Shown: one piece after another, positions 6,981 to 64,000 of the stretch
Layout of the letters: each line of letters opens with the position of its first letter
Numbering within the stretch: the stretch's first letter is position 1
Assembly (NCBI GenBank): GCA_964035545.1
Contig: OZ037769.1
Span: 14,414,633 to 14,478,632 of the forward strand
Reading direction: 5' to 3'
Source of the DNA: Bugula neritina
Taxonomy: Eukaryota > Animalia > Bryozoa
DNA length: 64,000 nt
The notes under the pieces: model-generated
The model's input: only the letters and a program-made list of their open reading frames with translations
What the model was told of the DNA's origin: nothing
The model's database searches: none
Position numbers and translations under genes: made by a program

Positions 6981-9900
6981 TCAGTTTATTTGGTAGAACA
7001 GTACTTTACTTTCATTGAATCTCGGGACTATCAGAGTATTTCCTGTCACGTGCAGATCAAATACATGAGAGTTAGTTCTTATAGCAGCATCTGAGATCTC
7101 TGTCAGCAGTTTACCTGAATATATGAATATATAATATAGATTAGTAAGTATATAATGTAGATTATTAAGTATATAATATAGATGAGTAAGTATATAATAT
7201 AGATGAGTAAGTATATAGTGTAGATTAGTAAGTATATATTCTAACCTGTATTCACATCCAGTATCCAGACTCTGGTGGTTTTACTGTGATTAGTAACAAA
7301 CACTCTCCCTCCGTGGTATGCTACACCTTCGGAGTCGGGTACATCTTGTGATGTCCATTCAACTTTTCCATTTGGAATATTCACTTTAAACACTTTAGAA
7401 GTTTGATAATCAGACACAACAACAGAGAGATTGTCTACGGCACACATTGATACCCAGTTAGGACTGAGTAGAGGACAGTGAATGTGTTTAATTACCTTCC
7501 CTGTAAGAGAGTAAACTGTTAGTCTCTTGTTCTGTCTGTCTGGTATAACAACCTGCTCACTAACAACTGCTAGTTTACTAAAATACCGACTCTTGTAATC
7601 AGTATGAGTCCACCTGGTGATGAGATTCCTTGTCAGATCATGTACTGTGACTGTGTAAGGGATACCATATTCTAAAGTATACAGTCTGTCCTTGTATACA
7701 GCTACACTGAGTACATAGTTACCTACTCCTACAAACTCCCTACTGAGTTGGTTATTATCATCTATTATATCTACTCTACGGCTCTCTATCCCAACATAAG
7801 TGTTTCCCTCATAACTACAGACTGAAGTACAGTAGCTAGACACAGGAACTGTATGCAGGAGAGACAACTGCGTAGGTAGAGTATCAGGAGTTGTCAGTCC
7901 ATATTCCAAGTCTATTGACACATTTTTTGAGGTGACAACTTCTACTTCAACTTCCCTATTCTCATCTACAATGAAGAAACTCATATGAGATTATTAAGAG
8001 ATAAAAATTGCAACTTGACATAAAGAAATGTGTGAATTTTATGACAGAAAAGTACTGAAATGTGAATGTTCTGCAATAGTTTTGTAAACAAATGTGTTTG
8101 ACAGTACATACTTTTATATTTAAGTCGCCCACATTTCTTAGCCAATTCAAGTAATAAGCCTTTAGCCTTACTACTTACTATACTGCTTACTAAAAAAGAA
8201 GCATCTAAGCTGAAAAAGTTTTAAAAAATCAACATTTATTAATATTCGAGTCTAACCTTTGACCTCTAGAGTAGCCATATTTAATAGTTTCAGAGTTGGA
8301 AAGTTCCCTGATAACAACTTCTTAATCTGGTTGATTGTCTCTCCATGTTTGTTTATAATGTCCACCTAAAGATATTGTTATAATTTTCAGATTTAGGGTT
8401 GATGTGCTATCCAGAGAGTCTATTTATCTAGTATAGAACTGCACCAGGCTAAGTCGATAGAACGAGTATATTTTATACACAACTATATATTATAAAAACA
8501 CGATACATTATTTCTAACAAGTTACACATCTAATCTATTTCACACTCTAGCTTCGACTGAGCTAGCAGCGGGAAACTACAATTGCTGCTAACTATCAACT
8601 ACGCTAATTGGCTATCCATTGTTCCGGGTCAATTACGCGACCCTACCTGTTGTGCTGCTGGTAGTTCCACGAACCACCACACCGCCCCCACCAGCAGAAA
8701 GCCATATTTCTGATATATATAAAAAAAAACATTCAATAGTAATTGCATACATCAGTGGACAAAAATAATACATAATATACAGGAAGAGACATAATAATAG
8801 ACAGAGTCATCATAACGATCCGTTGCATACAATTGGCCAGCTGTAGATAGACGAGGAATACTAGCTAGCTGTGGTATTAGACAAGGAATAACCTGTCTAG
8901 CAGTTAAGCATTTGCACGATTTTGGTTCCTCACCAATGTGGAGTTGTGGAGTATTCTGGGTAGCATACTAGAGTCCTTGTTGGGCACGCCGGTGCTTGGC
9001 TTGGCATGTACGCAGTTTCCGTTTCATACGGCATACGGATCCCTTCAGCTGGAAGAGTCCTGTGGTAGTGTTAAGTAGATCTGGCGCCAGCTGGGTGAAC
9101 TCTTCTTGTAATCGTAGGAGGCGTTCTTCTACTGTAGCTAGTCGTACTGGGTCTGGGGACGGTGTCCGTCTGCGGCGTAAGGGTGGACTGGGGGACCTGG
9201 TCCGTCTCTTCGCCGGGGTAGGGGAGATCTCTCCTTCTTCTGGATATGTAGTTTCCTCGGGGGTGTATGTAATTGGAGGGCGGTCAGACACCAGCGGGGA
9301 TTGTTGGCGGGCGTTGTCTAACACACGTTGGAACCCCGAGGATAGAACGGCTAATAGCATGGCCTTCTTTACCAGAGGTCGTATATATGTGAGGAACTCC
9401 GGGTACAGCTTAGCGTCGACCACATAGTTTTCTCCAGGGGAACAGCCCGCCGCTCTGTGTCTGGTGACGGGGTAGGGATACACATCATTGTACCCGCAGG
9501 GGCAGAAGGTCAGTAGGAGATGGGCATTGACGTGTAGTTTAAGGGAGCGGTGAGAGGCGCAATCTTCACCACAGATCTGGCATCTCGTCCGTCCTCTGGA
9601 CCCCCAGGCTGTTTCTATTTCTTCTTCGGTTTGTGGAGACACCCACCGCCAACGGCGGCGTAGTGGCTCAGGCCGGTCACCGCTAGCATAGTCCTCCGGA
9701 TACGGAGCGGGAAGTGTTCTATCCCGTACCCTGGTTGTAGCGGGTCGAGTGTAATCTGAAAAAGTTTCAACAGTGTTAGTACAGTACACTGCTGTGTTGT
9801 CAGCTTGAACAGCTTGGCAACTCCTAATTCAGTTACCTCGTAGAGATTAATGATAGTGAATAGTCAGATAGAACCGTATTGCAATGAGATTATAAAAATC

Positions 9901-12900
9901 TCTAAGTCAAACTGAGTTCTTACTACGGTATTTCACTAACCTATCTCCAGCTCGATTGACTCAGTGAGTCAGAGCTGAGCGATGCAATCTAGTTTCGTAT
10001 TAAGATATAGTTAACTCACCCCACGATCTGTTGTCGTAAGACATACTGAATATGTGAAATGGTTTGAACTACTGCTTAGAAACACGTCTACTCTTGACTG
10101 CATCAGCGTATGAAAAGATCGAGCAACGTGGTTGGGGTGCGTGATTAAGACTTTGTGCACCCGGCGGATGAATTTTGTTTCTATTTCCGCCGATACAAAA
10201 GTTGATATTTCCGTGGTGTTGACAACTCCCACATTTGCTCGATTCTTTTCTCGTACGGTTTTCCCCTAGACTTTCATGTGTGCCGCTTTTAACGCAGTCA
10301 CATACGAAGTCTTTCAAGTATGCGGGGGGTTGCCTCGTACGCTGTCCCCTTTCTAGGGGGGGTGACACGCTTGCCGGTTCGTTAGTAGGGGCCTCTAATG
10401 GCGTCTCTACTTCACCGTCAGCAGTCACCTCTTCTTGTTCTCCGGATGGAGCCCCTCCCTCCGTGGGGGTTTGCACTTCCGGAACCGGCTCGGTTTCTGG
10501 AAGTGATGGAATCAGACTTGGCGGTGGCGGACACGCTTCTGTTAGTAGAAGCTGCCGCTCCTCTCTCACCAAGTTTTCCTCCCGCGGTATGACCACTTCG
10601 TATTCAGGTCCATGCCGCCGTCGCCCGCGCGTTGTTGTCTGCCTTCTGGGCTCTAACAACGGGGGGGCTTCTCCCACTTCGCCGGGGCTAGCCCAATACG
10701 GTTTCAAGCGAGACTCATTCTGGATAGATACCTGTCCTGAGCGCTCGATCTTGTACGTATGATTGGGCATAGCCTCGACGACCACGTAGGGGCCTACGAA
10801 CTTAGGCTTCAGCTTATCAGCCTGTCCGCGGCGCCTACGGTAATTGACCATCCACACCTTATCTCCTCTTTGATAGAGGGGTGGTTCATCGGAATCTTCG
10901 TGCCGCACCTTCCACTGCTGTTGACGCAGGATCTCGTGTGCGGCCTTCATCCGTTCCACTAGTTCACTGGCATACTCGTGGACTGAGTTATCCTGCTCTG
11001 GAACGTGATAGGTGAGATGGTCAGGGACACGAGTCTCTCTCCCGAGCATCAAGAGGTTTGGGGTCTCACCAGTACTGGTGTGTGGGGTGCTACGGTATGC
11101 ACGCATGACTTGCGGCAACACCGTATCCCATTCCTCTTGACCTCGTCCAAGGAGGAGACTCCGGAGCGCATCACCTAGCATCCGGTTGTTGCGCTCCACC
11201 ACCCCGTTACCTTGAGGGTGGTAGGGGGTGGTCCTGCTCTGATTTACTCCCCAGAGGTGGCAAAGGTCGCTCATCAGTTGAGACTGAAATTGAGCGCCTT
11301 GATCAGAGTGTATCTGTTCGGGAAGCCCAAAATAACAGAATACATGTTGGTCTAGTGCCCTGGCCACTGTTGGGGCTGATGCATCTGGGATAGCCAGAGC
11401 ATCCGCCCACCTAGTAAAGTGGTCGGTTAGTACTAGGATCCAATTATTGCCTCTGGGGGTCAGGGGCATGGGTCCGACCAGGTCTACAGCGACTACTTGC
11501 CAGGGCCTGCCAGCATATAGCCTCCGCCGTCCTGCTTCACCAGGGGGGCGGCTATGCTTACTGGCCTGGCAGATCTCACACTGTTTGACTCTGAGCCGGA
11601 CGTCACGCTCCATCTGCGGCCAATACCACCGGAGCCGTAATTTGGACATCACTCGCTTGACCCCTGCGTGGGCCTGCTTGTGAGTATCCCAAATCAACTC
11701 ACGGCGGATGGCTGTGGGGCAGACTACCCTCTTCCTTTCCGGGTGTCTGCCGCTGGCAGCTAGAGAGATGGTTAGCAACCCATCCTGCCCGATCCGCAGC
11801 GAGTCCCAACGCTGACAGTATAGCCGGAACTCGGCGCATCCCTGTCGTAGGCGTTCCTCGCTGGGTCGTCGCCCTTCCCGTTTGGCCCGGTATATGTCTG
11901 CCACGACTCCAGGCAGCTCTTCTTGGAGCTTCTTCAGCTCTCGAACATTACCGGCCAGTACAGGGTTGGCGCGGAGGTTTTGTACATCCTCCGGGGACTC
12001 ATCAACTCTTTGCCTGAGTTGACCTTGATCCCAGTCAAACGGTGCTCCGTGATGAGCCAGCGTCTCCAACTCGCATCGCGGGAGACCTCCATCCCTCCTC
12101 TCGATGTTGAGACACTGTTTGCAACCTCCGTCAGGTCGGCGACTCAACCCATCTGCATTGCTGTGTCTCTTGCCCGGTCGATGTTCGATCCGGTATGAGA
12201 ATTCAGCTAGGATTTCGAGCCACCGGGCGACCTGACTAGAGGGCTCTGCTCTCCTGCACAACCAGATCAGCGAGGCATGATCCGTACGTAGCCGGAACTT
12301 CCTGCCATATAGGTATGGTCTGAAGTGCTTCACTGACTTGATTACTGCCAGCAGCTCCTTGCGGGTAGTGCAGTAATTTCGTTCAGCGGGAGGGAGAGAC
12401 TTGCTGTAGTAGGCTACTACTACTTCTCGGCCTTCCTGCACTTGTGACAGCACAGCGCCAACATTCTGGTCACTGGCGTCCGTGTCTAGGATGTACTCCA
12501 GAGTGGGGTCTGGGTAGGCCAAGATGGGCGCCGTTAGGAGGCAGCCCTTGAGGCGGTCGAACGCTTCTTGTTCGACTGGAGTCCAATGCCACGTCACTCC
12601 CTTTGCGGTAAGCCGGTTTAACGGCTGGGCTATGCCCGCAAAGTCTGGTATGTATTGCCTGTAATACCCTACCAGCCCCAAGAAAGCCCGGAGTCCGGTC
12701 AAGTCTTGAGGGGTGACCCAGTCTTCTACTGCCCGTACCTTTTCGGGATCCGTTGCCACGCCGTTTCGACCGACAACGTGCCCCAGGTACTTGACCTCCG
12801 GCTGCAACAGAGCGCACTTGGAAGGTTTGAGCTTAAGACCGGCACCTCGGAGTCTCTCGAAAACCTCCTGCAGACGACTGACATGTGTCTCGAAGTCTGG

Positions 12901-15900
12901 AGAGATTATGATGACATCATCGAGGTAGACCAGCAGTGTCTTCCAATGGAGTCCGCTAAGGACTTGTTCCATCAGCCTCTGGAAGGTGGCTGGGGCGGAG
13001 GTTAACCCGAAGGGCAGCACCTTCCACTTCCACAAACCGTCCCGTGTGATAAACGCCGCTTTCTCTTGGGCGTCGGGACTCAGAGGAACCTGCCAATAGC
13101 CGCTTAGCAAGTCTAACGTACTGAAGTACTTGCTGCCGGCTAGGGCGTCCAATGACTCGTCAATACGAGGTAGAGGGTAGGCGTCCTGTATGGTTACGCT
13201 ATTGAGTTTGCGGTAGTCCACACAGAACCGCCAACTGCCGTCTTTCTTCCGGACCAGTACGACTGGCGAGCTCCACGCACTATGGGCGGGCTCTATCAGT
13301 CCCCGGTCCAGAAGATCCCGTACTTGTCGGCTAACCTCCTTCTCTTTCTCCGGCCCCAGCCTGCGTGTGGGCTGCCGGACAGGGACTGTCCCTGCAGTCA
13401 GCGGTATTTCGTGTCTGACAATTCCAGTCAGTCCCACGTCATGCTCTCCGCTGCTGAACACATCACCGTAGTCGCGTAGTAACTTGGCCATAGCTTGGCG
13501 CTCTCTGTTACTCGCGCAGCCGCCACTGGCTGTTTCGTATAACTCCCGGAGATGTGTTGGGACTGCCCCTCGTCCCTGAATAGGGTGTCGAGGGAGTGCC
13601 TCTGTCGCATCACCCAGCGACGGGCCTACGTCTCCCTCCTGAACGGAGTGAAAACGGCCCAGCATCGACCCAGCCGGGAGCTTGATAGGCTCGGTGAAGG
13701 GGTTGACGCACTGCACTAAGATCTCCCCTTGCTCAGTCAGCTGATTCAGACTGCTGGCAAGTTGGATCTTTTCGTGCGCGCCTTCAACCACCCCGAGTCC
13801 AGAGATCCGGCTACTATTCACCCTGCAGTGAATGGTAGCCCGGGAGCGGCCTGGTATGGTACGGTTGCGTACCACTTGCACACCTCCCACTAACGGGCAG
13901 CCGAACTTGTCGACGCAGGCGAGTTCCCGCCCGGACATCATCATTGCAGATCTGCTAAAATCTATGTGACATCCGTGCCGTTTAAGGAACGGCATCCCGA
14001 GGATAGCATCCTCCTTGAGCTGACTGACGATGAACGTCTCTTGGATCGTTTGATCGCGGACTCGTCCCGTCAGCTCAATTATACCATAGAAGGGAAGGCA
14101 CGACCCGTCAGCTAGGGTGCCGTATTCCCCTTCGTATGCTTCCATCTCGCCCCTGACCCTAGCACTGAGGGTGTCGAAGAGTTGGCGGCTTAAGAGGTTT
14201 GTGGTACAGCCCGAATCAATGAGAAAAGTAACAGCTTTGCCTTCCAGTTTACCGGGCAAGAAATAGCTGTTCCCATGGGGCTGCACCTGAACTCTCCCTT
14301 CAGGCCTTACTCTCGCAGGGAGTACCTCCCTCGCTTTGGGTCGCGAAGGAGGTCTCTTGGGGCGGTGATAGGTAGGCCTCGGGGGTGCCGAGGCTAGATT
14401 CTCAGCTACCTTTGTGTGCTCCCATCCAGATTCTTGGACTTGTAGCCCTGTGAATCTGTTGTGAAGGGGCATAGAAAAGGCAGCCGCGGGGCGAAGCCCC
14501 TTGCTGGTCCGTCGTGGCTGTTGCCACTGTTGGTTGCCAGTACGCGGTACCCGTCTGGGTGACCTGCGTTTCTTCTTCCCTAGAGATTTCGTCGGCCCGC
14601 GGAAGGTGGGAACATCTGCGGGCCGCGGTAGTTTAACCCCTGATTTAGGAAGGGACAATATCGGCGGAAATGTCCTTGATTTCCGCACTCCCAGCAAAAA
14701 CTGACTGTTTCTCCCTGTGGCGGCGCCGATGGCCGCATGGGCTCAGGGGCGGTACTCACTGGGTTTTGTGGTGTCAGTGTTGCTATCAGCTTGGCTAGCA
14801 TGTTCGTCAGTTGAGTGACTTTTGATGCCGTCGCCAACTGGGACACGGCAGCCGCGGCGGGGGTTTCCTCCCCTTGTCCCGCGGCCGTGTCTGCGCGGTC
14901 TATCTCCACTTGGCGGGAGCTTCCGCGACTTTTATGCATTTGGTTAGCTAGGAGGTAAGCTTCCCCCTCAGTCAGAGCATCTTCAACGGTGGTGACTCCC
15001 CTAGCTAGAAACTGGTGGTGGAGACCCAGATCGTCGACAGATGCTATGAAAGCGTCGAGGGTGTACCTCTCGCGGTTGACTGGGGGCAAGTCGCTGTACG
15101 CGATCTGTGCCAGCTTCATGACCGCGGCGGCATGCTCCCGCAGCGGGGTGCGGGGATCACGCCGCAACCTCTGCAATCGGGCCCTGGCATCTGTAGCAGA
15201 GAGGCCAAAGCGGGCCCGCAGAGAAGCAAAGATATTATCAATGTCTACGCCCAGCCCATAGGGCTTGGCTTTGTCCATCAATGCCATTCTAAGCTTCAAC
15301 AGGGCCACCCTAGGGGGCCACTGAGCGACGTCCATTACGTCGCTAAACTCTTGGATAAATTGTTCCACCTCCTCTTCACCCGTGAAGGTGGGCGCCTTTA
15401 ACCTGTAGCGGTCTTCAGCTAGTTCTCGCGGAACCCTTCGCTCTTCTACTACATGGTTAACAGGCATTGTCTCTACAGCATTGTCTCTACGCTCACCTTC
15501 GATTGCCGGTGGTTGAGTTCCAGCATTTTCAGTCTCCATCTTGGATGCACAATCCCACCGCTGCCACCACTGTTATAATTTTCAGATTTAGGGTTGATGT
15601 GCTATCCAGAGAGTCTATTTATCTAGTATAGAACTGCACCAGGCTAAGTCGATAGAACGAGTATATTTTATACACAACTATACATTATAAAAACACGATA
15701 CATTATTTCTAACAAGTTACACATCTAATCTATTTCACACTCTAGCTTCGACTGAGCTAGCAGCGGGAAACTACAATTGCTGCTAACTATCAACTACGCT
15801 AATTGGCTATCCATTGTTCCGGGTCAATTACGCGACCCTACCTGTTGTGCTGCTGGTAGTTCCACGAACCACCACAATATACACTTTCTTGAAATTAAAC

Positions 15901-18757
15901 AATAAAAATATCAATTCATCAAAGTCAAACGGAACTAAATACTAATATCATGGAACTAGTAAACCACAGACCTGGTGATTGTGTTTATGTCTGGCCTCAA
16001 TCTGAAGTCTATGTCTATTCAGATCAGACAACTTCACTCCAACATCCTGTTCAGTGAGTCTCTCCAACTCTAATTTAGTATTTCTTCTCAATTCTATCAA
16101 CTCTTCTTCCAACTTCTTATACTTCTGTTGAATACTCTCAATCTATAAATAGACTCTACTAGTTTAATTATATCTTGACTTACAAACTAGTGACTACAGT
16201 GATATTCAACTAACATATAACAGTACAGAGTATATAATATGACCTGTTCATCACGTGTTCTGTGGAGTGTCTCTATCATATCTCTAGTCTCACTATCATA
16301 ATCACACAATACTCCAGTCATGTGTTTCAGTAGATCTGAGAGTTTATCTTCTCTGTCCAATATTTTTGATCTCATCTCATCCACCTCTTTAGAGAGTTCA
16401 GTTACCAACTCTTTCAGTGACATCAGTTTATGAGATGAACCTAAAATAGCAAATAGACACCGATGTTCATTTTTTAAGCAAATACATACCATCTGTACAA
16501 TTCTCTATAGAATACATACCATCTGGACAATTCTCTATAGAATACATACTATCTGTACAATTCTCTATAGAACACATACTACCTGTACAATTCTCTATAG
16601 AATACATACTATCTGTACAATTCTCTATAGAATACATACCATCTGGACAATTCTCTATAGAATACATACTATCTGTACAATTCTCTATAGAACACATACT
16701 ACCTGTACAATTCTCTATAGAATACATACTATCTGTACAATTCTCTATAGAATACATACCACCTGTACAATTCCCTATAGAATACATACCATCTGTACAA
16801 TTCTCTATAGAATACATACTATCTGTACAATTCTCTATAGAATACATACTATCTGGACAATTCTCTATAGAATACATACCATCTGGACAATTCTCTATAG
16901 AATACATACTATCTGTACAATTCTCTATAGAATACATACCATCTGGACAATTCTCTATAGAATACATACCATCTGTACAATTCTCTATAGAACACATACT
17001 ATCTGTACAATTCTCTATAGAATACATACTATCTGGACAATTCTCTATAGAATACATACTATCTGTACAATTCTCTATAGAACACATACTATCTGTACAA
17101 TTCTCTATAGAATACATACCATCTGTACAATTCTCTATAGAATACATACCATCTGTACAATTCTCTATAGAACACATACTACCTGTACAATTCTCTATAG
17201 AATACATACCATCTGTATAATTCTCTATAGAATACATACTATCTGTACAATTCTCTATAGAACACATACTACCTGTACAATTCTCTATAGAATACATACT
17301 ATCTGTACAATTCTCTATAGAATACATACTATCTGTACAATTCTCTATAGAATACATACCATCTGGACAATTCTCTATAGAATCCATACTATCTGTACAA
17401 TTCTCTATAGAATACATACTATCTGGACAATTCTCTATAGAATACATACCATCTGGACAATTCTCTATAGAATACATACTACCTGTACAATTCTCTATAG
17501 AACACATACTATCTCGACAATTCTCTATAGAATCCATACTATCTGTACAATTCTCTATAGAATACATACTATCTGTACAATTCTCTATAGAACACATACT
17601 ATCTGTACAATTCTCTATAGAATACATACTATCTGTACAATTCTCTATAGAATACATACTATCTGTACAATTCTCTATAGAATACATACTATCTGTACAA
17701 TTCTCTATAGAATACATACTATCTGTACAATTCTCTATAGAATACATACTATCTGTACAATTCTCTATAGAACACATACTATCTGTACAATTCTCTATAA
17801 AATACATACTATCTGTACAATTCTCTATAGAACACATACTATCTGGACAATTCTCTATAGAATACATACTATCTGTACAATTCTCTATAGAACACATACT
17901 ATCTCGACAATTCTCTATAGAATACATACTATCTGTACAATTCTCTATAGAATACATACCATCTGTACAATTATCCAGGACACTAAGACACTCCACACAG
18001 CCACAAGTTAAACACTTCCTACATCCAAGACTGTATAGTAATTCCGTGTGTTTAGTGCATAGCCTGGGTGCTAGTTTCATAGCCTGCGTTTTGTAGTCAG
18101 TCATGGTGATCATAGGGTGGGCTTCATGCACATCATCATGTGACTGTGTATAATACAGAATTCATACAGTACAGTATAGTACAACCATGATTTCTATTAT
18201 TATATCATATATTGAAAATATTACATTAATCATATTATTATTGAATTGTTTAAAATACTATATATCTGAAATGCCTTAATGTATAACTCACCTCTCTGTG
18301 TTTAGCACAGAGTTTAGTAGAACAGGTTTTACAGTAAATAACAGCTGGCTGATTATTCACTCCTTTCCTGGTACAACTATCACAGTATAGAGATGGACCC
18401 TCTCTGGTGTTGGAGGTAGGAAGAGAGTGAATGTCAACATCAAATACTTCCCTATACAATACAGTAAAGTAGTTACTAACTAATCACAGCATACAATAAA
18501 TCTCGCTCAGTAGAGAATATAACACACAATATAGTAGAACCCACAATGATTAGTAAACAGAACTCAAACTGAGAATATCTCAAAGGAAGGTGATACCTGC
18601 AGAAGGGACATCTCACTATCTTATTGACCTCAAAGTTCCCCAGCAGACATCTTAAGCAGTGTACATGAGAACAAGGTAGAGATCTGGAATCTTCTAAATC
18701 CTCTAGTCTGGTTACACAGAATCCACATTCTACCTGCTCAACTGTAGCTTCAGCCAT
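6981..18757 (-). CDS. TRIM (RBCC) E3 ubiquitin ligase-like protein with C-terminal NHL-like beta-propeller
   Basis: Phase-consistent exons: 18757-18597 (RING CGFC..CSHVHCLRC..CPFC), 18451-18292 (B-box 1), 18143-17960 (B-box 2), 16440-16244 and 16142-15972 (coiled coil), 8365-8257, 7965-7246 (propeller blades such as VVIPDRQNKRLTVY and VVVSDYQTSKVFKV), 7114-6981 (stop TGA). Confidence 0.85.
7127..7238. repeat. 21-bp intronic minisatellite (~5 copies)
   Basis: Unit aatatagattagtaagtatat fills most of the last TRIM intron. Confidence 0.8.
8376..8681 (-). repeat. 3' LTR of Gypsy copy 1
   Basis: Direct repeat of 15571-15876; preceded on the minus strand by purine-rich GGTGGGGGCGG (PPT-like, 8682-8692). 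Confidence 0.95.
8968..9755 (-). CDS. Gypsy ORF3 main exon: C2H2 zinc finger / Arg-Ser-Pro-rich / coiled-coil protein (not env)
   Basis: CQICGEDCASHRSLKLHVNAH, then CPC..H..C, KRRTRSPSPPLRRRRTPSP and heptad-like LATVEERLLRLQEEF..; intact in both copies; preceded by TACTAAC...TTTTTCAG acceptor. Confidence 0.8.
10020..10044 (-). CDS. Candidate ATG-bearing first coding exon of ORF3 (MSYDNRSW)
   Basis: ATG TCT TAC GAC AAC AGA TCG TGG G|GTGAGT, phase 1, joins in frame to 9755; identical in copy 2 (58288-58264). Confidence 0.55.
10069..14637 (-). CDS. pol: Gypsy pol polyprotein (PR-RT-RNaseH-INT), -1 frame relative to gag
   Basis: FLIDSG protease, YLDD RT, DTDASD RNase H, HKQAH..CEIC zinc-binding plus DDE integrase core, GPY module; uninterrupted ORF. 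Confidence 0.97.
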   Translation of the reverse strand, partial: VKLPRPADVPTFRGPTKSLGKKKRRSPRRVPRTGNQQWQQPRRTSKGLRPAAAFSMPLHNRFTGLQVQESGWEHTKVAENLASAPPRPTYHRPKRPPSRPKAREVLPARVRPEGRVQVQPHGNSYFLPGKLEGKAVTFLIDSGCTTNLLSRQLFDTLSARVRGEMEAYEGEYGTLADGSCLPFYGIIELTGRVRDQTIQETFIVSQLKEDAILGMPFLKRHGCHIDFSRSAMMMSGRELACVDKFGCPLVGGVQVVRNRTIPGRSRATIHCRVNSSRISGLGVVEGAHEKIQLASSLNQLTEQGEILVQCVNPFTEPIKLPAGSMLGRFHSVQEGDVGPSLGDATEALPRHPIQGRGAVPTHLRELYETASGGCASNRERQAMAKLLRDYGDVFSSGEHDVGLTGIVRHEIPLTAGTVPVRQPTRRLGPEKEKEVSRQVRDLLDRGLIEPAHSAWSSPVVLVRKKDGSWRFCVDYRKLNSVTIQDAYPLPRIDESLDALAGSKYFSTLDLLSGYWQVPLSPDAQEKAAFITRDGLWKWKVLPFGLTSAPATFQRLMEQVLSGLHWKTLLVYLDDVIIISPDFETHVSRLQEVFERLRGAGLKLKPSKCALLQPEVKYLGHVVGRNGVATDPEKVRAVEDWVTPQDLTGLRAFLGLVGYYRQYIPDFAGIAQPLNRLTAKGVTWHWTPVEQEAFDRLKGCLLTAPILAYPDPTLEYILDTDASDQNVGAVLSQVQEGREVVVAYYSKSLPPAERNYCTTRKELLAVIKSVKHFRPYLYGRKFRLRTDHASLIWLCRRAEPSSQVARWLEILAEFSYRIEHRPGKRHSNADGLSRRPDGGCKQCLNIERRDGGLPRCELETLAHHGAPFDWDQGQLRQRVDESPEDVQNLRANPVLAGNVRELKKLQEELPGVVADIYRAKREGRRPSEERLRQGCAEFRLYCQRWDSLRIGQDGLLTISLAASGRHPERKRVVCPTAIRRELIWDTHKQAHAGVKRVMSKLRLRWYWPQMERDVRLRVKQCEICQASKHSRPPGEAGRRRLYAGRPWQVVAVDLVGPMPLTPRGNNWILVLTDHFTRWADALAIPDASAPTVARALDQHVFCYFGLPEQIHSDQGAQFQSQLMSDLCHLWGVNQSRTTPYHPQGNGVVERNNRMLGDALRSLLLGRGQEEWDTVLPQVMRAYRSTPHTSTGETPNLLMLGRETRVPDHLTYHVPEQDNSVHEYASELVERMKAAHEILRQQQWKVRHEDSDEPPLYQRGDKVWMVNYRRRRGQADKLKPKFVGPYVVVEAMPNHTYKIERSGQVSIQNESRLKPYWASPGEVGEAPPLLEPRRQTTTRGRRRHGPEYEVVIPREENLVREERQLLLTEACPPPPSLIPSLPETEPVPEVQTPTEGGAPSGEQEEVTADGEVETPLEAPTNEPASVSPPLERGQRTRQPPAYLKDFVCDCVKSGTHESLGENRTRKESSKCGSCQHHGNINFCIGGNRNKIHPPGAQSLNHAPQPRCSIFSYADAVKSRRVSKQ
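14576..14637 (-). promoter_or_regulatory. Putative -1 ribosomal frameshift signal
   Basis: G_UUA_AAC in gag frame (14637-14631), 5-nt spacer, 8-bp stem CGGCCCGC/GCGGGCCG, loop UUCCC complementary to downstream GGGAA. Confidence 0.7.
14580..15539 (-). CDS. gag: Gypsy gag with CCHC zinc knuckle
   Basis: 319-aa ORF, APTFTG...VEQFI capsid-like start, CWECGNQGHFRRYC knuckle. Confidence 0.93.
   Translation of the reverse strand: METENAGTQPPAIEGERRDNAVETMPVNHVVEERRVPRELAEDRYRLKAPTFTGEEEVEQFIQEFSDVMDVAQWPPRVALLKLRMALMDKAKPYGLGVDIDNIFASLRARFGLSATDARARLQRLRRDPRTPLREHAAAVMKLAQIAYSDLPPVNRERYTLDAFIASVDDLGLHHQFLARGVTTVEDALTEGEAYLLANQMHKSRGSSRQVEIDRADTAAGQGEETPAAAAVSQLATASKVTQLTNMLAKLIATLTPQNPVSTAPEPMRPSAPPQGETVSFCWECGNQGHFRRYCPFLNQGLNYRGPQMFPPSAGRRNL
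15551..15569 (-). promoter_or_regulatory. Primer binding site complementary to tRNA-Leu
   Basis: Plus strand aatcccaccgctgccacca matches the 3' end plus CCA of eukaryotic tRNA-Leu (AAG type); 1 nt from the 5' LTR. Confidence 0.85.
15571..15876 (-). repeat. 5' LTR of Gypsy copy 1
   Basis: Direct repeat of 8376-8681. Confidence 0.95.
16481..17972 (-). repeat. 30-bp minisatellite, ~50 copies, derived from a TRIM exon/donor junction
   Basis: Minus-strand unit AATTGTACAGAT(G/A)GTATGTATTCTATAGAG; the first unit overlaps the end of the B-box 2 exon. Confidence 0.97.
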
Positions 18758-31300: not shown

Positions 31301-32099
31301 TGACACACGTATGTGTGCTCTCACTAGTATAATATATAATGTTTATGTTATGTATATTTCTTCATACATTTCATCAGATGGTACCAGCTGTGTCTTAGAG
31401 GACGAACCCGCAACCAATTAGATCCCACGTTACAGTTTGTCACCGATGTCGGGAGAATGAAGTTTGTACGACCTTTGTATCAGTGAGTATAGTAGACTTA
31501 GAACTAGATATCTTTTTATACCGTCTGTAATATTATAGATATCACATTCTATCGCACTGTAGAGAATGCTGTCTACAGTTTTATAGAAAAACACCACTGC
31601 CTTAACTCAGTCTTTACTTCTTTGTTCATTCCTATCTTTAATTTAAACTTTATAATACTTTTAAGGAGCTGCAAAATAGAACTTTTAGAATACCTATGGG
31701 TTAGTCTGCGGTTTACTCTACAAATATATTCTATGAATCAAAACTGAAAGTATTTCTACCCTCCAATATAGTTTCTCTGTTTGTATGACCATTTAGGATC
31801 AAACTTTCAAAAAGTTGAAAATACCGGATACTTAGGAAATTAACTCTGTAATTTTAAATAGTCTCTTTTGGTACAGAGTAAAATGACATGTATTATTATT
31901 TTGTAAATCTGCCTGCTGTGGTGGGTTATGTCATGCGTATAATATCACACACAAGTACACATTTATATATTTTCTCTGCAGGGACATGTATGCATTTGAA
32001 GATGTGAGACAGATTGCTATTGATACCTTTGAGACCAATAGACCCAACATGCACCCTCAGACTGCTGCTATGGTAGCAAAAGACCTTCACCTTGAGTAA
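25324..32099 (+). CDS. LTA4H: Leukotriene A4 hydrolase-like M1 aminopeptidase, paralogue 2 (complete, divergent substrate pocket)
   Basis: Exons 25324-25494 ([16 protein letters not shown]), 25783-25928, 26230-26410 (PCQDTP), 26946-27097, 27553-27625, 27740-27880 (GGIEN), 28392-28598 (HEITH..E), 29084-29231, 29759-29868, 30066-30136, 30764-30905, 31182-31264, 31378-31482, 31982-32099; phases consistent. Confidence 0.92.
29510..29725. repeat. 22-bp intronic minisatellite (~10 copies)
   Basis: Same cagtatgacatcactatg unit as 3184-3360. Confidence 0.9.
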
Positions 32100-54930: not shown

Positions 54931-57210
54931 TTGTGATTGGTCTGTGAAAAACTGGTCTCTAAACAAAGTGCTCACGAGTTTTATAAAAAGATATCAATAA
55001 TTGAATGCTAAAATTTATTAGTTGAAATGAAATATAATCACTGGTTTTGATATCCATCCATTTCAAACTTTTTGCATAGCAGGAGAAAAAGTGTGCTAGT
55101 TGTCAGAGTAATACACGTGATGACTGATGAATCAACAATGTTTTATAAAATGTGAGACAGAATAATTTAAAAAAAACACGTCGTAGAATAATTAAAATTG
55201 ACCATATGAAAGCAGTGCCAATAACATGCATAAGTTTGTCCGACTCTCTTATTCAAAGTACTAATGTACATAATCTGTTACTTTTTTAATAAGTGCAGCT
55301 AATTTGCAATGCTTAGATGATGGTCTTTAGCTGGTGGCGATTGTCTCCCATGTTACATCATATCTTATGCTTTTATCTTCAAGGTATTATATTTGTTTGC
55401 TTAGATTTGAGAAATGTTTGCAGTTACAGTGTTCAATAGTTTTAGCATGGTTATATAACTCTTAGATGTCACATTGAACCTCCTTAACAGCACTCATAGG
55501 TCAATAAAAATTAGGTAACGATCCTCTTTATGCAAATTGAAGTAGTAAAACACCCCCTAAAATAATTATTGAGAATGTTTTAAGATATGCCAGAATTGTA
55601 CCTTTCCAAGAAATAAAGAGCACTTCAATAGTGAAGCACCTATGTACTAAAAAGCCATAGGCAGCAATAGTTACAGGTGTACCGTGAATTATGAGAAGCA
55701 GGCTACCTACCCCAAAACATCAATGGGAATAAGAAAAAGAGCATGGTTTAACTCACACCAAAAGCTCACTGAGGATTAGGCTACGCTTGTATGATTGACT
55801 CAATATATGATCAAAAAAGAAACTTTCAAAACACAGTCTTCCACTTATCTATTTCCTACCTTCTACTAGCACTAAAAAATTGTACAACAGCATATAAGTC
55901 TGATCTACCTGCCTTTTAAATAGAAAAAGGTTTATACCCTGTAATATATCTACCACATCTCAGTAAAATGTTCAAGTACTAACCACACTCATATTATCTT
56001 ATTTTAAACCAATTTTAAAAGCCAGCACTCAAATTATACCAGTTCTTTTAGCGTTATAAGGATCAACTTTTAAATTAAGTAATTGAAAATGCTATTCTTT
56101 AAATGCTAAAGAGCACAAAGATACAGCTACTACTATGAATGTGTGGGCGCCAAAAATTTATTCATGCAAAAATTAGCTTAATGAAATTAAAAAGAAGTTT
56201 TAAATTTTTCGCTACTCTATTATATTTGTAGCAGTAAAACAAATACTACAGAAATTTAAGAAGTGATTATATATATGACAAATTATTTTATATTTATTAT
56301 AGATAAAATAAATGAAAAAAAATTATCTGAACTTATAAAAAAATTGTTGCAATGCATCAAAAATATATTAGAACATGTCTCGCCTAGACAATAAGTTTGA
56401 TAAGCAGAGAATAATTGCCCAAAACTGATAGCAGCATATTTAATCAAGCTGCCTTTTAGGCTAAACGCAGATAATTGTAAATGGAGCTGGAAAATATTAT
56501 TTGTTGATTGTTGTACAATAAATATTTGACCTAATTCCAGCATACGTATGCAGGACAACTATTTACTTCAAATGAATGAAGAGCTCTCAAGACGTAACCA
56601 GTGCAGCTGGTTATACTGTTATAATTTTCAAATTTAGGGTTGATGTGCTATCCAGAGAGTCTATTTATTTACTATAGAACTGCACCAGGATAAGTCGAGT
56701 GAACGAGTATATTTTACACACAATTATACATTATAAAAACGATACATTATTTCCTAACAAGTTACACATCTAATCTATTTCACACTCTAGCTTCGACTGA
56801 GTTAGCAGCGGGAAACTACAATTGCTGCTAACTATCAACTACGCTAATTGGTTATCCATTGTTCCGGGTCAATACCGCGACCCTACATGTTGTGCTGCTA
56901 GTAGTTCCACGAACCACCACACCGCCCCCACCAGCAGAAAGCCATCTTTCTGATATATATATAAAAAAAAACATTCATTGGTAACCGCATACATCAGTGG
57001 ACAAAATAATACATAATATACAGGAAGAGACATAATAATAGACAGAATCATTATAACGATCCGTTGCATACAATTGGCCAGCTGTAGATAGACAAGGAAT
57101 ACTAGCTAGCTGTGGTGTTAGACAGGGGATAACCTGTTAAGCAGTCAAACATTTACATGACATCTTGGCTTCTCCCAAGAGGCGGAGTTGGAGTACTCCG
57201 GGTAGTCTAA

Positions 57211-57998
57211 CTAGAGTCCTTGTTGGGCACGCCGGTGCTTGGCTTGGCATGTACACAGTTTCCGTTTCATACGGCATACGGATCCTTTTAGCTGGAAGAG
57301 TCCTGTTGTAGTGTTAAGTAGATCTGGTGCCAGCTGGGTGAACTCTTCTTGTAATCGTAGGAGGCGTTCTTCTACTGTGGCTAGGCGTACTGGGTCTGGG
57401 GACGGTGTCCGTCTGCGGCGCAAGGGTGGACTGGGGGACCTGGTTCGTCTCTTCGTCGGGGTAGGGGAGATCTCTCCTTCTTCTGGATATGTAGTTTCTT
57501 CGGGGGTGTATGTAATTTGAGGGCGGTCAGACACCAACGGGGATTGTTGGCGGGCGTTGTCTAACACACGTTGGAACCCCGAGGACAGAACGGCTAATAG
57601 CATGGCCTTCTTCACCAGAGGTCGTATAAGTGTGAGGAACTCCGGGTATAGCTTAGCGTCGACCACGTAGTTTTCTCCAGGGAAACAGCCCGCCGCTCGG
57701 TGTCTGGTGACGGGGTAGGGATACACATCATTGTACCCGCAGGGGCAGAATGTTAGTAGGAGATGAGCATTGACGTGTAGTTTAAGGGAGCGGTGAGAGG
57801 CGCAATCTTCACCACAGATCTGGCATCTCGTCCGTCCTCTGAACCCCCAGGCCGTTTCTATTTCTTTCTCTGTTTGTGGAGACACCCACCGCGAACGGCG
57901 GCGTAGTGGCTCAGGTCGGTCACCACTAGCATACTCCTCCGGATACGGAGCGGGAAGTGTTCTATCCCGTACCCTGGTTGTAGCGGGTCGAGTGTAAT
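57211..57998 (-). CDS. Gypsy ORF3 main exon, copy 2 (intact)
   Basis: Same length and zinc-finger Cys/His ligands as 8968-9755; TTTTTCAG acceptor retained at 57999. Confidence 0.75.
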
Positions 57999-58312
57999 CT
58001 GAAAAAGTTTCAACAGTTTTAATACAGTACACTGCTGTGTTGTCAGCTTGAACAGCTTGGCAACTCCTAATTCAGTTACCTCGTAGAGATTAATGGTAGT
58101 GAATAGTCAGATAGAACACGTATTGCAATGAGATTATAAAAATCTCTAAGTCAAACTGAGTTCTTACTACGGTATTTCACTAACCTATCTCCAGCTCGAT
58201 TGACTCAGTGAGTCAGAGCTGAGCGATGCAATCTAGTTTCGTATTAAGATATAGTTAACTCACCCCACGATCTGTTGTCGTAAGACATACTGAATGTGTG
58301 AAATGGTTTGAA

Positions 58313-61300
58313 CTACTGCTTAGAAACACGTCTACTCCTGACTGCATCAGCGTATGAAAAGATCGAGCAACGTGGTTGGGGTGCGTGATCAAGACTTTGT
58401 GCACCCGACGGATGAATTTTGTTTCTATTTCCGCCGATACAAAAGTTGATATTTCCGTGGTGTTGACAACTCCCACATTTGCTCGATTCTTTTCTCGTAC
58501 GGTTTTCCCCTAGACTTTCATGTGTGCCGCTTTTAACGCAGTCACATACGAAGTCCTTCAAGTATGCGGGGGGTTGCCTCGTACGCTGTCCCCTTTCTAG
58601 GGGGGGTGACACGCTTGCCGGTTCGTTAGTAGGGGCCTCTAATGGTGTCTCTACTTCACCGTCAGCGGTCACTTCTTCTTGTTCTCCGGATGGAGCCCCT
58701 CCCTCCGTGGGGGTTTGCACTTCCGGAACCGGCTCGGTTTCTGGAAGTGATGGAATTAGACTTGGCGGTGGCGGACACGCTTCTGTTGACAAAAGCTGCC
58801 GCTCCTCCCTCACCATGTTTTCTTCCCGCGGTATGACCACTTCGTATTCAGGTCCATGCCGCCGTCGCCCGCGCGTTGTTGTTTGCCTCCTGGGCTCTAA
58901 CAACGGGGGGGGGGGGGGGCTTCTCCCACTCCGCCGGGGCTAGCCCAATACAGTTTCAAGCGAGACTCATTCTGGATAGACACCTGTCCTGAGCGCTCAA
59001 TCTTGTACGTATGATTGGGCATAGCCTCGACGACCACGTAGGGGCCTACAAACTTAGGCTTCAGCTTATCAGCCTGTCCGCGGCGCCTACGGTAATTGAC
59101 CATCCACACCTTATCTCCCCTTTGATAGAGAGGGGGTTCATCGGAATCTTCGTGCCGCACCATCCACTGCTGTTGGCGCAGTATATCGTGTGCGGCCTTC
59201 ATCCGTTCCACTAGTTCACTGGCATACTCGTGGACTGAGTTATCTTGCTCTGGAACGTGATAGGTGAGATGGTCAGGGACACGAGTCTCTCTCCCGAGCA
59301 TCAAGAGGTTTGGGGTCTCACCAGTACTGGTGTGTGGGGTGCTACGGTATGCACGCATGACTTGGGGCAACACCGTATCCCATTCCTCTTGACCTCGTCC
59401 AAGGAGGAGACTCCGGAGTGCATCACCTAGCATCCGGTTGTTGCGCTCCACCACCCCGTTACCTTGAGGGTGGTAGGGGGTGGTCCTGCTCTGATTTACT
59501 CCCCAGAGGCGGCAAAGGTCGCTCATCAGTTGAGACTGGAATTGAGCGCCTTGATCAGAGTGTATCTGTTCAGGGAGCCCAAAATAACAGAATACATGTT
59601 GGTCTAGTGCCCTGGCCACTGTTGGGGCTGATGCATCTGGGATAGCCAGAGCATCCGCCCACCTAGTAAAGTGGTCGGTTAGTACTAGGATCCAATTATT
59701 GCCTCTGGGGGTCAGGGGCATGGGTCCGACCAGGTCTACAGCGACTACTTGCCAGGGCCTACCAGCGTATAGCCTCCGCCGTCCTGCTTCACCAGGGGGG
59801 CGGCTATGCTTACTGGCCTGGCAGATCTCACACTGTTTGACTCTGAGCCGGACATCACGCTCCATTTGTGGCCAATACCACCGAAGTCGTAATTTGGACA
59901 TCACTCGCTTGACCCCTGCGTGGGCCTGCTTGTGAGTATCCCAAATCAACTCACGGCGGATGGCTGTGGGGCAGACTACCCTCTTCCTTTCCGGGTATCT
60001 GCCGCTGGCAGCTAGAGAGATGGTTAGCAACCCATCCTGCCCGATCCGCAGCGAGTCTCAACGCTGACAGTATAGCCGGAACTCGGCGCATCCCTGTCGT
60101 ATGCGTTCCTCGCTGGGTCGTCGCCCTTCCCTTTTGGCCCGGTATATGTCTGCCACGACTCCAGGCAGCTCTTCTTGGAGCTTCTTCAGCTCTCGAACAT
60201 TACCGGCCAGTACAGGGTTGGCGCGGAGGTTTTGTACATCCTCCGGGGACTCATCAACTCTTTGCCTGAGTTGACCTTGATCCCAGTCAAACGGTGCTCC
60301 GTGATGAGTCAGCGTCTCCAACTCGCATCGCGGGGGACCTCCATCCCTCCTCTCGATGTTGAGACACTGTTAACAACCTCCGTCAGGTCGGCGACTCAAC
60401 CCATCCGCATTGCTGTGTCTCTTGCCCGGTCGATGTTCGATCCGGTATGAGAATTCAGCTAGGATTTCGAGCCACCGGGCGACCTGACTAGAGGGCTCTG
60501 CTCTCCTGCACAACCAGATCAGCGAGGCATGATCCGTACGCAGCCGGAACTTCCTGCCATATAGGTATGGTCTGAAGTGCTTCACTGACTTGATTACTGC
60601 CAGCAGCTCCTTGCGGGTAGTGCAGTAATTTCGTTCAGCGGGTGAGAGAGACTTGCTGTAGTAGGCTACTACTACCTCTCGGCCTTCCTGCACTTGTGAC
60701 AGCACAGCGCCAACATTTTGGTCACTGGCGTCCGTGTCTAGGATGTACTCCAGAGTGGGGTCTGGGTAGGCCAAGATGGGCGCCGTTAGTAGGCAGCCCT
60801 TGAGGCGGTCGAACGCTTCTTGCTCGACTGGAGTCCACTGCCACGTCACTCCCTTTGCGGTGAGCCGGTTTAACGGCTGGGCTATGCCCGCAAAGTCTGG
60901 TATGTATTGCCTGTAATACCCTACCAGCCCCAAGAAAGCCCGGAGTCCGGTCAAGTCTTGGGGGGTGACCCAGTCTTCTACTGCCCGTACCTTTTCGGGA
61001 TCCGTTGCCACGCCGTTTCGACCGACGACGTGCCCCAGATACTTGACCTCCGGCTGCAATAGAGCGCACTTGGAAGGTTTGAGCTTAAGACCGGCACCTC
61101 GGAGTCTCTCGAAAACCTCCTGCAGACAACTGACATGTGTCTCGAAGTCTGGAGAGATTACGATGACATCATCGAGGTAGACCAGCAGTGTCTTCCAATG
61201 GAGTCCGCTAAGGACTTGTTCCATCAGCCTCTGGAAGGTGGCTGGGGCGGAGGTTAACCCGAAGGGCAGCACCTTCCACTTCCACAAACCGTCCCGTGTG

Positions 61301-62888
61301 ATAAACGCCGCTTTCTCTTGGGCGTCGGGACTCAGAGGAACCTGCCAATAGCCGCTTAGCAAGTCTAACGTACTGAAGTACTTGCTGCCGGCTAGGGCGT
61401 CCAATGACTCGTCAATACCAGGTAGAGGGTAGGCGTCCTGTATGGTTACGCTATTGAGTTTGCGGTAGTCCACACAGAACCGCCAACTACCGTCTTTCTT
61501 CCGGACCAGTACGACTGGCGAGCTCCACGCACTATGGGCGGGCTCTATCAGTCCCCGGTCCAGAAGATCCCGTACTTGTCGGCTAACCTCCTTCTCTTTC
61601 TCCGGCCCCAGCCTGCGTGTGGGCTGCCGGACAGGGACTGTCCCTGCAGTCAGCGGTATTTCGTGTCTGACAATTCCAGTCAGTCCCACGTCATGCTCTC
61701 CGCTGCTGAACACATCACCGTAGTCGCGTAGTAACTTAGCCATAGCTTGGCGTTCTCTGTTACTCGCGCAGCCGCCACTGGCTGTTTCGTACAACTCCCG
61801 GAGATGTGTTGGGACTGCCCCCCGTCCCTGAATAGGGCACTGAGGGGGTGCCTCCGTTGCATCACCCAGCGACGGGCCTACGTCTCCCTCCTGAACAGAG
61901 TGAAAACGGCCCAGCATCGACCCAGCCGGGAGCTTGATAGGCTCGGTAAAGGGGTTGACACACTGCACTAAGATCTCCCCTTGCTCAGTCAGCTGATTCA
62001 GACTGCTGGCAAGTTGGCAAGTGGCGCGCCTTCAACCACCCCGAGTCCAGAGATCCGGCTACTATTCACCCTGCAGTGAATGGTAGCCCGGGAGCGGCCT
62101 GGTATGATACGGTTGCGTACCACTTGCACACCTCCCACTAAAGGGCGGCCGAACTTGTCGATGCAGGCGAGTTCCCGCCCGGACATCATCATTGCAGATC
62201 TGCTAAAATCTATGTGACATCCGTGCCGTTTAAGGAACGGCATCCCGAGGATAGCATCCTCCTTGAGCTGACTGACGATGAACGTCTCTTGGATCGTTTG
62301 ATCACGGACTCGTCCCGTCAGCTCAATTATACCATAGAAGGGAAGGCACGACCCGTCAGCGAGGGTGCCGTATTCCCCTTCGTATGCTTCCATCTCGCCC
62401 CTGACCCTAGTACTGAGGGTGTCAAAGAGTTGGCGGCTTAAGAGGTTTGTGGTACAGCCCGAATCAATGAGGAAAGTAACAGCTTTGCCTTCCAGTTTAC
62501 CGGGCAAGAAATAGCTGTTCCCATGGGGCTGCGCCTGAACTCTCCCTTCAGGCCTTACTCTCGCAGGGAGTACCTCCCTCGCTTTGGGTCGCGAAGGAGG
62601 TCTCTTAGGGCGGTGGTAGGTAGGCCTCGGGGGTGCCGAGGCTAGATTCTCAGCTACCTTTGTGGGCTCCCATCCAGATTCTTGGACTTGTAGCCCTGTG
62701 AATCTGTTGTGAAGGGGCATAGAAAAGGCAGCTGCGGGGCGAAGCCCCTTGCTGGTCCGTCGTGGCTGTTGCCACTGTTGGTTGCCAGTACGCGGTACCC
62801 GTCTGGGTGACCTGCGTTTCTTCTTCCCTGGAGGTTTCATCGTCGGCCCGCGGAAGGTGGGAACATCTGCGGGCCGCGGTAGTTTAAC
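58313..62888 (-). pseudogene. pol: Disrupted pol of Gypsy copy 2
   Basis: Frameshifting indel near 62015-62025, stop at 60370, TGG>TGA at 60058, poly-G expansion frameshift at ~58904-58919. Confidence 0.9.
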
Positions 62889-63790
62889 CCCTGATTTAGG
62901 AAGGGACAATATCGGCGGAAATGTCCTTGATTTCCGCACTCCCAGCAAAAACTGACTGTTTCTCCCTGTGGCGGCGCCGATGGCCGCATGGGCTCAGGGG
63001 CGGTACTCACTGGGTTTTGTGGTATCAGTGTTGCTATCAGCTTGGCTAGCATGTCCGTCAGTTGAGTGACTTTTGATGCCGTCGCCAACTGGGACACGGC
63101 AGCCGCGGCGGGGGTTTCCTCCCCTTGTCCCGCGGCCGTCTCTGCGCGGTCTATCTCCACTTGGCGGGAGCTTCCGCGACTTTTATGCATTTGATTAGCT
63201 AGGAGGTAAGCTTCCCCCTCAGTCAGAGCATCTTCAACGGTGGTGACTCCCCTAGCTAAAAACTGGTGGTGGAGACCCAGATCGTCGACAGATGCTATGA
63301 AAGCGTCGAGGGTGTACCTCTCGCGGTTGACTGGGGGCAAGTCGCTGTACGCGATCTGTGCCAGCTTCATGACCGCGGCGGCATGCTCCCGCAGCGGGGT
63401 GCGGGGATCACGCCGCAACCTCTGCAATCGGGCCCTGGCATCTGTAGCAGAGAGGCCAAAGCGGGCCCGCAGAGAAGCAAAGATATTATCAATGTCTACG
63501 CCCAGCCCATAGGGCTTGGCTTTGTCCATCAATGCCATTCTAAGCTTCAGCAAGGCCACCCTAGGGGGCCACTGAGCGACGTCCATTACGTCGCTAAACT
63601 CTTGGATAAATTGTTCCACCTCCTTTTCACCCGTGAAGGTGGGCGCCTTTAACCTGTAGCGGTCCTCAGCTAGTTCTCGCGGAACCCTTCGCTCTTCTAC
63701 TACATGGTTAACAGGCATTGTCTCTACAGCATTGTCTCTACGCTCACCTTCGATTGCCGGTGGTTGAGTTCCAGCATTTTCAGTCTCCAT
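62837..63790 (-). CDS. gag: Gypsy gag, copy 2
   Basis: 317-aa ORF near-identical to 14580-15539. Confidence 0.9.
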   Translation of the reverse strand: METENAGTQPPAIEGERRDNAVETMPVNHVVEERRVPRELAEDRYRLKAPTFTGEKEVEQFIQEFSDVMDVAQWPPRVALLKLRMALMDKAKPYGLGVDIDNIFASLRARFGLSATDARARLQRLRRDPRTPLREHAAAVMKLAQIAYSDLPPVNRERYTLDAFIASVDDLGLHHQFLARGVTTVEDALTEGEAYLLANQMHKSRGSSRQVEIDRAETAAGQGEETPAAAAVSQLATASKVTQLTDMLAKLIATLIPQNPVSTAPEPMRPSAPPQGETVSFCWECGNQGHFRRYCPFLNQGLNYRGPQMFPPSAGRR

Positions 63791-64000
63791 CTTGGATGCA
63801 CTATCCCACCGCTGCCACCACTGTTATAATTTTCAGATTTAGGGTTGATGTGCTATCCAGAGAGTCTATTTATTTACTATAGAACTGCACCAGGATAAGT
63901 CGAGTGAACGAGTATATTTTACACACAATTATACATTATAAAAACGATACATTATTTCCAAACAAGTTACACATCTAATCTATTTCACACTCTAGCTTCG

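Follow-up and report, generated by a model that had tools for sequence, protein, structure and literature searches.

The window analysed here, a stretch of 64,000 nucleotides from Bugula neritina (contig OZ037769.1), holds a Ty3/Gypsy element on the minus strand and a second copy of it that reaches past the window edge. In the order of the element, its features are as follows.

Copy 1 of the element: 7.5 kb, minus strand, LTR-gag-pol-third ORF-LTR
15571..15876, minus strand: 5' LTR of copy 1, 306 bp, TG...CA ends, one mismatch to the 3' LTR
15552..15570, minus strand: primer-binding site, assigned from the sequence
14580..15539, minus strand: gag with a C-terminal CCHC knuckle (zf-CCHC E 0.14; 100 homologues)
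15497..15539, minus strand: coding exon 1 (predicted) of the third gene, made of gag codons 1-14 and one further base, followed by the donor GT at 15496
10069..14742, minus strand: pol with PR-RT-RH-INT in Pfam domain order, in another frame than gag and overlapping it
9756..10068, minus strand: spacer, forming the AT-rich 3' end of the predicted intron (acceptor AG 9757-9756)
8968..9755, minus strand: third-gene main exon, encoding aa 25-286 of the open frame (pN/pS 0.15)
9274..9681, minus strand: zinc-binding domain of two fingers, flanked by helices and a strand (aa 50-185; model pLDDT 94.8, pTM 0.87)
9151..9210, minus strand: basic Ser-Pro tract (aa 207-225), subfamily-specific, a possible nuclear localisation signal
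8974..9141, minus strand: C-terminal heptad helix and basic tail (helix 233-285 in the model)
8376..8681, minus strand: 3' LTR of copy 1, 306 bp, with a G-rich tract just before it
56615..64000, minus strand: copy 2 of the element, 96.8% identical to copy 1 and extending past the window edge

Copy 1 shows the features of the Metaviridae, including two TG...CA LTRs, a target-site duplication (ATAT, 4 bp), a primer-binding site and gag followed by PR-RT-RH-INT. Its pol frame of 1557 codons encodes protease, RT, RNase H and integrase, which is the Gypsy order (Pfam). This copy is young and seems intact. The pol of copy 2 carries two frame-shifting indels, near 62023 and 58919, and the divergence between the copies is uneven, ranging from 1 to 23 differences per 250 nt. 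The primer-binding site, which we take to be of the tRNA-Leu type, is found identical or nearly identical in the related loci L002, L004, L008, L010 and L013. Since no chromodomain family matched P0003 or P0001 at E≤1 in Pfam, membership of the chromoviruses was ruled out. Gag and pol share 163 nt, read in different frames, and a pattern search of 14560-14760 revealed no slippery heptamer of the classical X-XXY-YYZ type.

Between the pol stop (10069) and the 3' LTR, on the sense strand of the element, lies a third open frame of 286 codons from stop to stop (8968-9828), which recurs intact and 96% identical in copy 2 (57211-58071). The first-pass annotation had placed an ORF of ~270 aa in this slot of both copies and described in it a C2H2 finger, a CPC-x12-H-x4-C module, a basic SP tract and a C-terminal heptad helix. 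The open frame is real and intact and all four parts were located in it. Finger 1 (C83-x2-C86-x12-H99-x3-H103) is a regular C2H2 finger, finger 2 has the form C109-P-C111-x12-H124-x4-C129, and in the C-terminal helix 12 of 15 a/d positions are hydrophobic. However, the first ATG of the frame is at codon 157, i.e. behind the zinc fingers, and therefore the frame cannot be read as a free-standing ORF from a start of its own. The Arg-Ser-Pro tract, put forward earlier as a defining feature, did not hold up as such: by pattern it occurs in one of 53 close relatives, it is absent from nearly all of them in the alignment, and judged from these sequences it is confined to the closest subfamily and is not a feature of the family. 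An SR-like splicing regulator with a conserved Arg-Ser-rich domain was also considered, and ruled out on the same count of one in 53.

The third ORF is under purifying selection, like pol. The two copies in the window differ in it by 10 non-synonymous and 23 synonymous changes (pN/pS 0.15, Fisher P 8e-8), compared with ratios of 0.17 for pol and 0.21 for gag. The protein search gave 57 homologues at E≤0.001, one almost identical and the others down to 44% identity. In agreement with the earlier claim of a non-env gene, the highest 19-residue Kyte-Doolittle mean is 1.24 and no transmembrane stretch is present, while 4 of 53 close relatives reach 1.6; no env family in Pfam matched the third ORF or the family members. 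An errantivirus or other env-bearing element was ruled out for lack of a transmembrane anchor and of an env family match. The first-pass annotation had itself named an env fragment, a recent neutral capture and a dN/dS near 1 as outcomes that would speak against its reading, and none of these was observed. Related domains do occur in bryozoan gene models, as might be expected of a host exon caught recently by the element. Nevertheless, with the selection just described, the depth of the homologues, the same slot occupied in elements whose integrases are 50-59% identical, and neither a transmembrane stretch nor an env match, a neutral passenger or env remnant is extremely improbable.

As to expression, the sequence signals make it very probable that the third gene is produced by splicing from gag to ORF3. 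The predicted donor (15496) ranks first among 427 GT sites of the element, as scored by a rough matrix. The acceptor reads TTTTCAG, with a branch-like TACTAAC at 9781-9775, and at 9755 the GC content steps from 0.37-0.40 to 0.56. Donor and acceptor are in frame, so that 43+788 nt would encode a predicted product of 276 aa. The host has spliceosomal introns, and the acceptor of one aminopeptidase exon in the window (TTTCAG) resembles that of the element. Both sites have left a footprint in relatives. Of 101 gag proteins, 51 extend far enough at the N-terminus; 48 of these carry Gly, Ser or Arg, codable as nGT, at the donor codon. The Glu that follows is present in all 51 and is better kept than any other column among the first 45 residues, where the sequence is otherwise variable. 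On the acceptor side, all 20 ORF3 relatives caught by a pattern, which selects for the exon start and not for the residue preceding it, carry Ser or Leu followed by Asp or Gly, the combination that YAG demands.

A naturally joined form was found once among 178 family proteins. P0031 is a 261-aa ORF on a 5.3-kb contig, its first 14 residues are identical to the gag start of P0116, and it runs from the gag start straight into the ORF3 exon at the predicted point. Since a spliced RNA would retain the primer-binding site and both ends, P0031 is likely a reverse-transcribed spliced RNA, although a DNA deletion at the same point may have produced the join instead. Other observations count against the splice: the branch-like heptamer is altered at two positions in copy 2, the acceptor has a low score for pyrimidine content, and none of five related loci with a 5' end has a strong donor near the gag start. 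The 15497-9755 joint was absent among the joints listed for two public runs, for which contigs only were used. In run X1 (RNA library, small share) one contig of 219 nt lies inside ORF3 and leaves the acceptor uncovered, and run X2, which covers all 30 bins, does not have the predicted joint among those listed; neither listing is a sign that the joint is lacking.

Alternatively, the third gene could be read from an internal promoter or a mini-exon in the spacer and not from the gag exon. The spacer offers a candidate of 25 nt (ATG 10044, donor 10019) that is in the same phase as the gag exon, has a donor ranking fourth of 427 and is kept in both copies; moreover, the spacer differs at only 4 of 312 nt and holds two AP-1-like sites. 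However, the sole natural joined form found uses the gag exon and the gag donor footprint is conserved, while the patchy divergence of the copies means that the low difference count of the spacer may reflect recombination. We consider this route improbable as a replacement for the gag exon; it concerns expression only and is compatible with the gag join.

The spacer has further peculiarities. Its part between pol and ORF3 (9829-10068) contains the element's only two TGA(C/G)TCA sites, arranged as an inverted pair. A possible micro-exon of 26 nt (acceptor near 10045, donor 10019) would shift the frame if included after the gag exon. With 240-nt windows and 30 shuffles each, RNA folding at z≤-2 was seen in 20 of 24 windows within the predicted intron (9637-15396) and in 1 of 7 elsewhere, the latter being the LTRs, leader, ORF3 exon and 3' UTR. 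A Rev-response-like RNA element in the spacer (z -3.1) was dropped as a candidate, 21 of 31 element windows reaching z≤-2, and the spacer RNA had no Rfam match.

A profile search of 1.84 billion representatives identified 121 matches to the two-finger domain. Taking the protein and profile searches together, including the query, 82 of 171 proteins carry the full motif W-x-S/T-x2-T ... C-x2-C-x12-H-x3-H-x5-C-x-C-G-x12-H ... [VI]-D. C86, H99, H103, C109 and C111 are invariant in the alignment of 69 sequences, partly due to the choice of rows. Finger 2 generally follows CxC-x12-H-x3..11-C/H, its fourth ligand being Cys in 69 and His in 23 of 93 domains, and a hydrophobic link of 5 residues connects it to finger 1. 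The helix of finger 1 is basic, with Arg or Lys prevailing at two positions (74 and 71 of 93 domains), while its position 6 is Val, Leu or Ile in 75 of 93, unlike a canonical base-reading finger. The domain modelled from the 69-row alignment folds into an N-terminal helix, the two fingers, a strand and three helices. This core of ~130 aa is followed by a disordered linker and a heptad helix of 55 residues; L230-Q241 is conserved in at least 90% of 54 sequences, and such a helix also ends the distant members inspected by eye.

The domain has no catalogued counterpart in the collections searched. In Pfam, 8 of 69 members gave sub-threshold or generic C2H2 matches only, and the zf-C2H2 match in the window (E 0.13) was below the cut-off. 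The Foldseek and structure-model check suggested by the first-pass annotation gave no match at E≤0.001 in the PDB or the viral library. By structure comparison no chain reached Z≥5 among 48,161, nor among a further set of 183, and the Atlas returned generic C2H2 or unnamed clusters only. The best structural matches are DNA-binding C2H2 pairs, and weak ones (Z 3.7, rmsd 3.2, 51 aligned). As in the tandem pairs of ZNF217, Kaiso and SALL4, finger 1 is a regular C2H2 finger; however, the match covers ~50 of 136 residues at Z≤3.7, and repeated regular fingers with canonical linkers are absent. The CxCG start of finger 2 presumably resembles that of IDD and ASCIZ fingers, a likeness that stayed below threshold in all comparisons (PF22992 E 0.073 in 1 of 33 members; 5b3h E 2.1; Atlas TM ≤0.23). 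Neither group has a counterpart of the N-terminal Trp-helix or of the C-terminal strand and helices.

The domain is tied to retrotransposons and lies after the integrase across the lineage. A scan with the integrase only, in line with a check proposed by the first-pass annotation, gave 19 loci, 9 ending less than 800 nt after the match and 10 with at least 1.5 kb downstream. Eight of these ten have integrases at least 50% (50-54%) identical to that of the window, and seven of the eight carry the domain downstream on the same strand (iE 2e-21 to 9e-11). L016 and L017, with integrases 37% and 43% identical and 6.1 and 2.7 kb downstream, had no domain match. The seven loci represent three families. 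In L006/L007/L009/L015 the domain is encoded by a separate ORF with its own ATG, likewise under constraint (pN/pS 0.10, P 3e-7, and 0.42, P 0.09, for two pairs), while in L002 and in L010/L012 the module is in frame with pol. A further locus, L008 (1125-7628), has a pol frame of 2168 codons whose end encodes a variant finger pair (C2H2 plus CxxC-H-H), followed by a terminal helix; this pair occupies the same slot and is not matched by the domain profile. In P0282 a distant copy of the domain ends an ORF that encodes RNase H and integrase, the latter 59% identical to that of the window.

These in-frame fusions to the end of Pol in several related families, like the gag-derived first exon, had been overlooked by the first-pass annotation. 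Fused and separate states are interleaved on the integrase tree of the fetched loci, a quick tree with weak support. The fused forms keep open linkers of about 20 to 280 residues and, by eye, an internal Met with an acidic stretch resembling the start of the separate ORF3; the module comes after the motif with which Pol terminates in unfused families. No longer fused protein was found among those of 971-2770 residues in a weak search, P0282 showing that such forms exist. The close family was represented at no locus in the metagenome or viral contigs scanned.

Among 30 family proteins looked up, all five organism-named clusters come from Watersipora subatra or Bugula neritina, and all are gene models. 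In the domain tree, a quick tree of 128 columns in which 28 of 63 forks are open, element-borne copies stand on both sides with bryozoan gene models among them, and therefore the link between element and domain is old. P0176 and P0275 (XP_067940964.1, XP_067940963.1; Watersipora subatra) contain the domain twice, end in a coiled helix and group with the window's side of the tree (SH-aLRT 92), which makes them a candidate for a domesticated copy. P0278 and P0279 (EB796_000764, EB796_000763), neighbours in Bugula neritina, and P0226 of Watersipora share, by eye, an N-terminal Tyr-rich segment in addition to the two-finger domain and look like a host gene family.

We propose, with somewhat less than even confidence, that the spliced third gene provides a nuclear, dimerising zinc-finger regulator which promotes the element's own expression. 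In the spliced RNA the exon at 9755 would follow directly on gag codons 1-14, and the resulting 276-aa protein would be nuclear, dimerise through its C-terminal helix and bind the DNA or RNA of the element with its two zinc fingers, this binding promoting expression of the element. That the protein acts in the nucleus on the element's own copies, either as LTR transactivator or anti-silencing factor or as export factor for unspliced RNA, is to our mind an evenly balanced question, judged from anatomy. A trans-acting regulator is put first because fingers, linker and coiled coil are arranged as in a transcription factor, because the module is separable from the integrase and because fused forms seem to keep an internal start. 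The basic helix of finger 1, the heptad helix and the weak structural likeness to DNA-binding C2H2 pairs are in favour of this reading, while the mostly Val, Leu or Ile residue at position 6 of the finger-1 helix stands against it. A pure transactivator is further at odds with the in-frame Pol fusion in three families (L002, L010/L012, P0282) and in the variant L008.

Since the module is fused to Pol in related families, it might instead be an integration tether which, like a chromodomain, carries the integration complex to chosen chromatin, either fused to Pol or as a separate spliced partner. The position in frame after the integrase in L002, L010, L012 and P0282, the variant pair in L008 and the open linkers kept between the two all suit such a tether, which accounts for the Pol fusions better than a transactivator does. 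However, the module is expressed separately in two places of the integrase tree (quick, weak support), fused forms seem to keep the internal start, and the module stands outside the Pol-ending motif of unfused families, so we regard a tether as rather unlikely. We think no better of the chances of an antagonist of host defence, in which fingers and coiled coil would bind or decoy a host silencing factor, possibly the host proteins with the same domain. The non-canonical recognition helix fits this idea, as do the gene models of bryozoans that contain this domain and a common N-terminal segment, two of them adjacent in Bugula neritina, and the weak resemblance of finger 2 to the IDD/ASCIZ CxCG motif. 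However, that resemblance is below every threshold, and between the copies the gene changes at the slow rate of pol, showing no hint of an arms race over this distance.

A full-text literature search revealed no description of this third gene; Repbase, Dfam and GyDB may hold such elements, annotated or not. It represents a real family of accessory genes in animal Gypsy elements, apparently one not described before, and the earlier impression of an ORF outside the described families thus agrees with the literature, Pfam and fold searches. Non-env third ORFs of LTR retrotransposons are already known, and it is the zinc-finger/coiled-coil type that is not placed in a catalogued family. According to the available text of one study, insect errantiviruses (gypsy/gypsy clade, idefix subclade) likewise have a third gene between pol and 3' LTR, with its main exon spliced to a gag exon as is predicted here, the env of the idefix subclade being spliced from within gag (PMC12992720). 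In contrast to that env, the window protein is of a soluble zinc-finger type, has no signal peptide-like or transmembrane stretch and matches no env. Bdelloid rotifer LTR retrotransposons encode non-env ORF3s of the DEDDy exonuclease, GDSL esterase, coiled-coil and TM types, which are described there as metazoan and selected, like the window gene, and as made from spliced messages, as is predicted for it, but belong to other protein families, and the term 'zinc finger' does not occur in the main text (PMC5408684). Plant elements (Grande gene23, Retand, RIRE2) have conserved additional ORFs between pol and 3' LTR, one of them nuclear and with a proposed regulatory role; these are reported as antisense with their own promoter (PMC7264820), whereas the genes of the window family are sense, probably gag-spliced or else Pol-fused, and animal. 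The bryozoan elements treated in the available text of PMC13524379 carry a gB-type env, and 'zinc finger' is not mentioned in that text.

Two other systems can be compared. The chromodomain at the integrase C-terminus of chromoviruses directs targeting. Its place as a chromatin-binding module after the integrase has a putative counterpart in the Pol-fused relatives, but the window family has zinc fingers and a coiled coil in place of a chromodomain, often as a separate gene. Tat, Rev, Rex and Tas are small basic proteins made from spliced RNA and encoded 3' of pol, and complex retroviruses are marked by accessory regulators made in this way. The window gene is predicted to be likewise small, basic, spliced and 3' of pol, but it has no match to these proteins in sequence or structure and belongs to an env-less Ty3/Gypsy element. 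What stands of the 'complex' retrotransposon proposed by the first-pass annotation is a selected non-env third gene, likely spliced and laid out like a transcription factor; the Arg-Ser-Pro tract is not part of it. More speculatively, and at rather less than our confidence in the regulator itself, an env-less animal Ty3/Gypsy lineage could be 'complex' in the retroviral sense, with a zinc-finger/coiled-coil transcription or export factor of its own that toggles in evolution between two forms, one Pol-fused and moving with the integration complex, the other gag-spliced and trans-acting, with spliced RNA copied back to the genome and the domain exchanged with bryozoan host genes.

The non-env third genes found in print are enzymes, membrane proteins or antisense genes. 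A conserved gene resembling a transcription factor in a metazoan Gypsy lineage, occurring both fused and separate, is a means to study self-activation, escape from silencing or target choice of retrotransposons. A defined protein is available for this, together with a predicted junction and an element that is young and apparently intact; in addition, an uncatalogued zinc-binding domain common to elements and bryozoan genes is named.

In the surroundings of copy 1, a 30-bp unit is repeated in ~50 tandem copies at 16481-17972, 600 bp upstream of the 5' LTR, and an NHL/beta-propeller-like open frame (7241-7990; PQQ_2 E 6e-5, NHL E 0.008) adjoins the insertion. Exons of what we take to be an M1-family aminopeptidase with leukotriene A4 hydrolase-like motifs lie at 1156-1915 and at about 27700-31600, duplicated ~26.5 kb apart.
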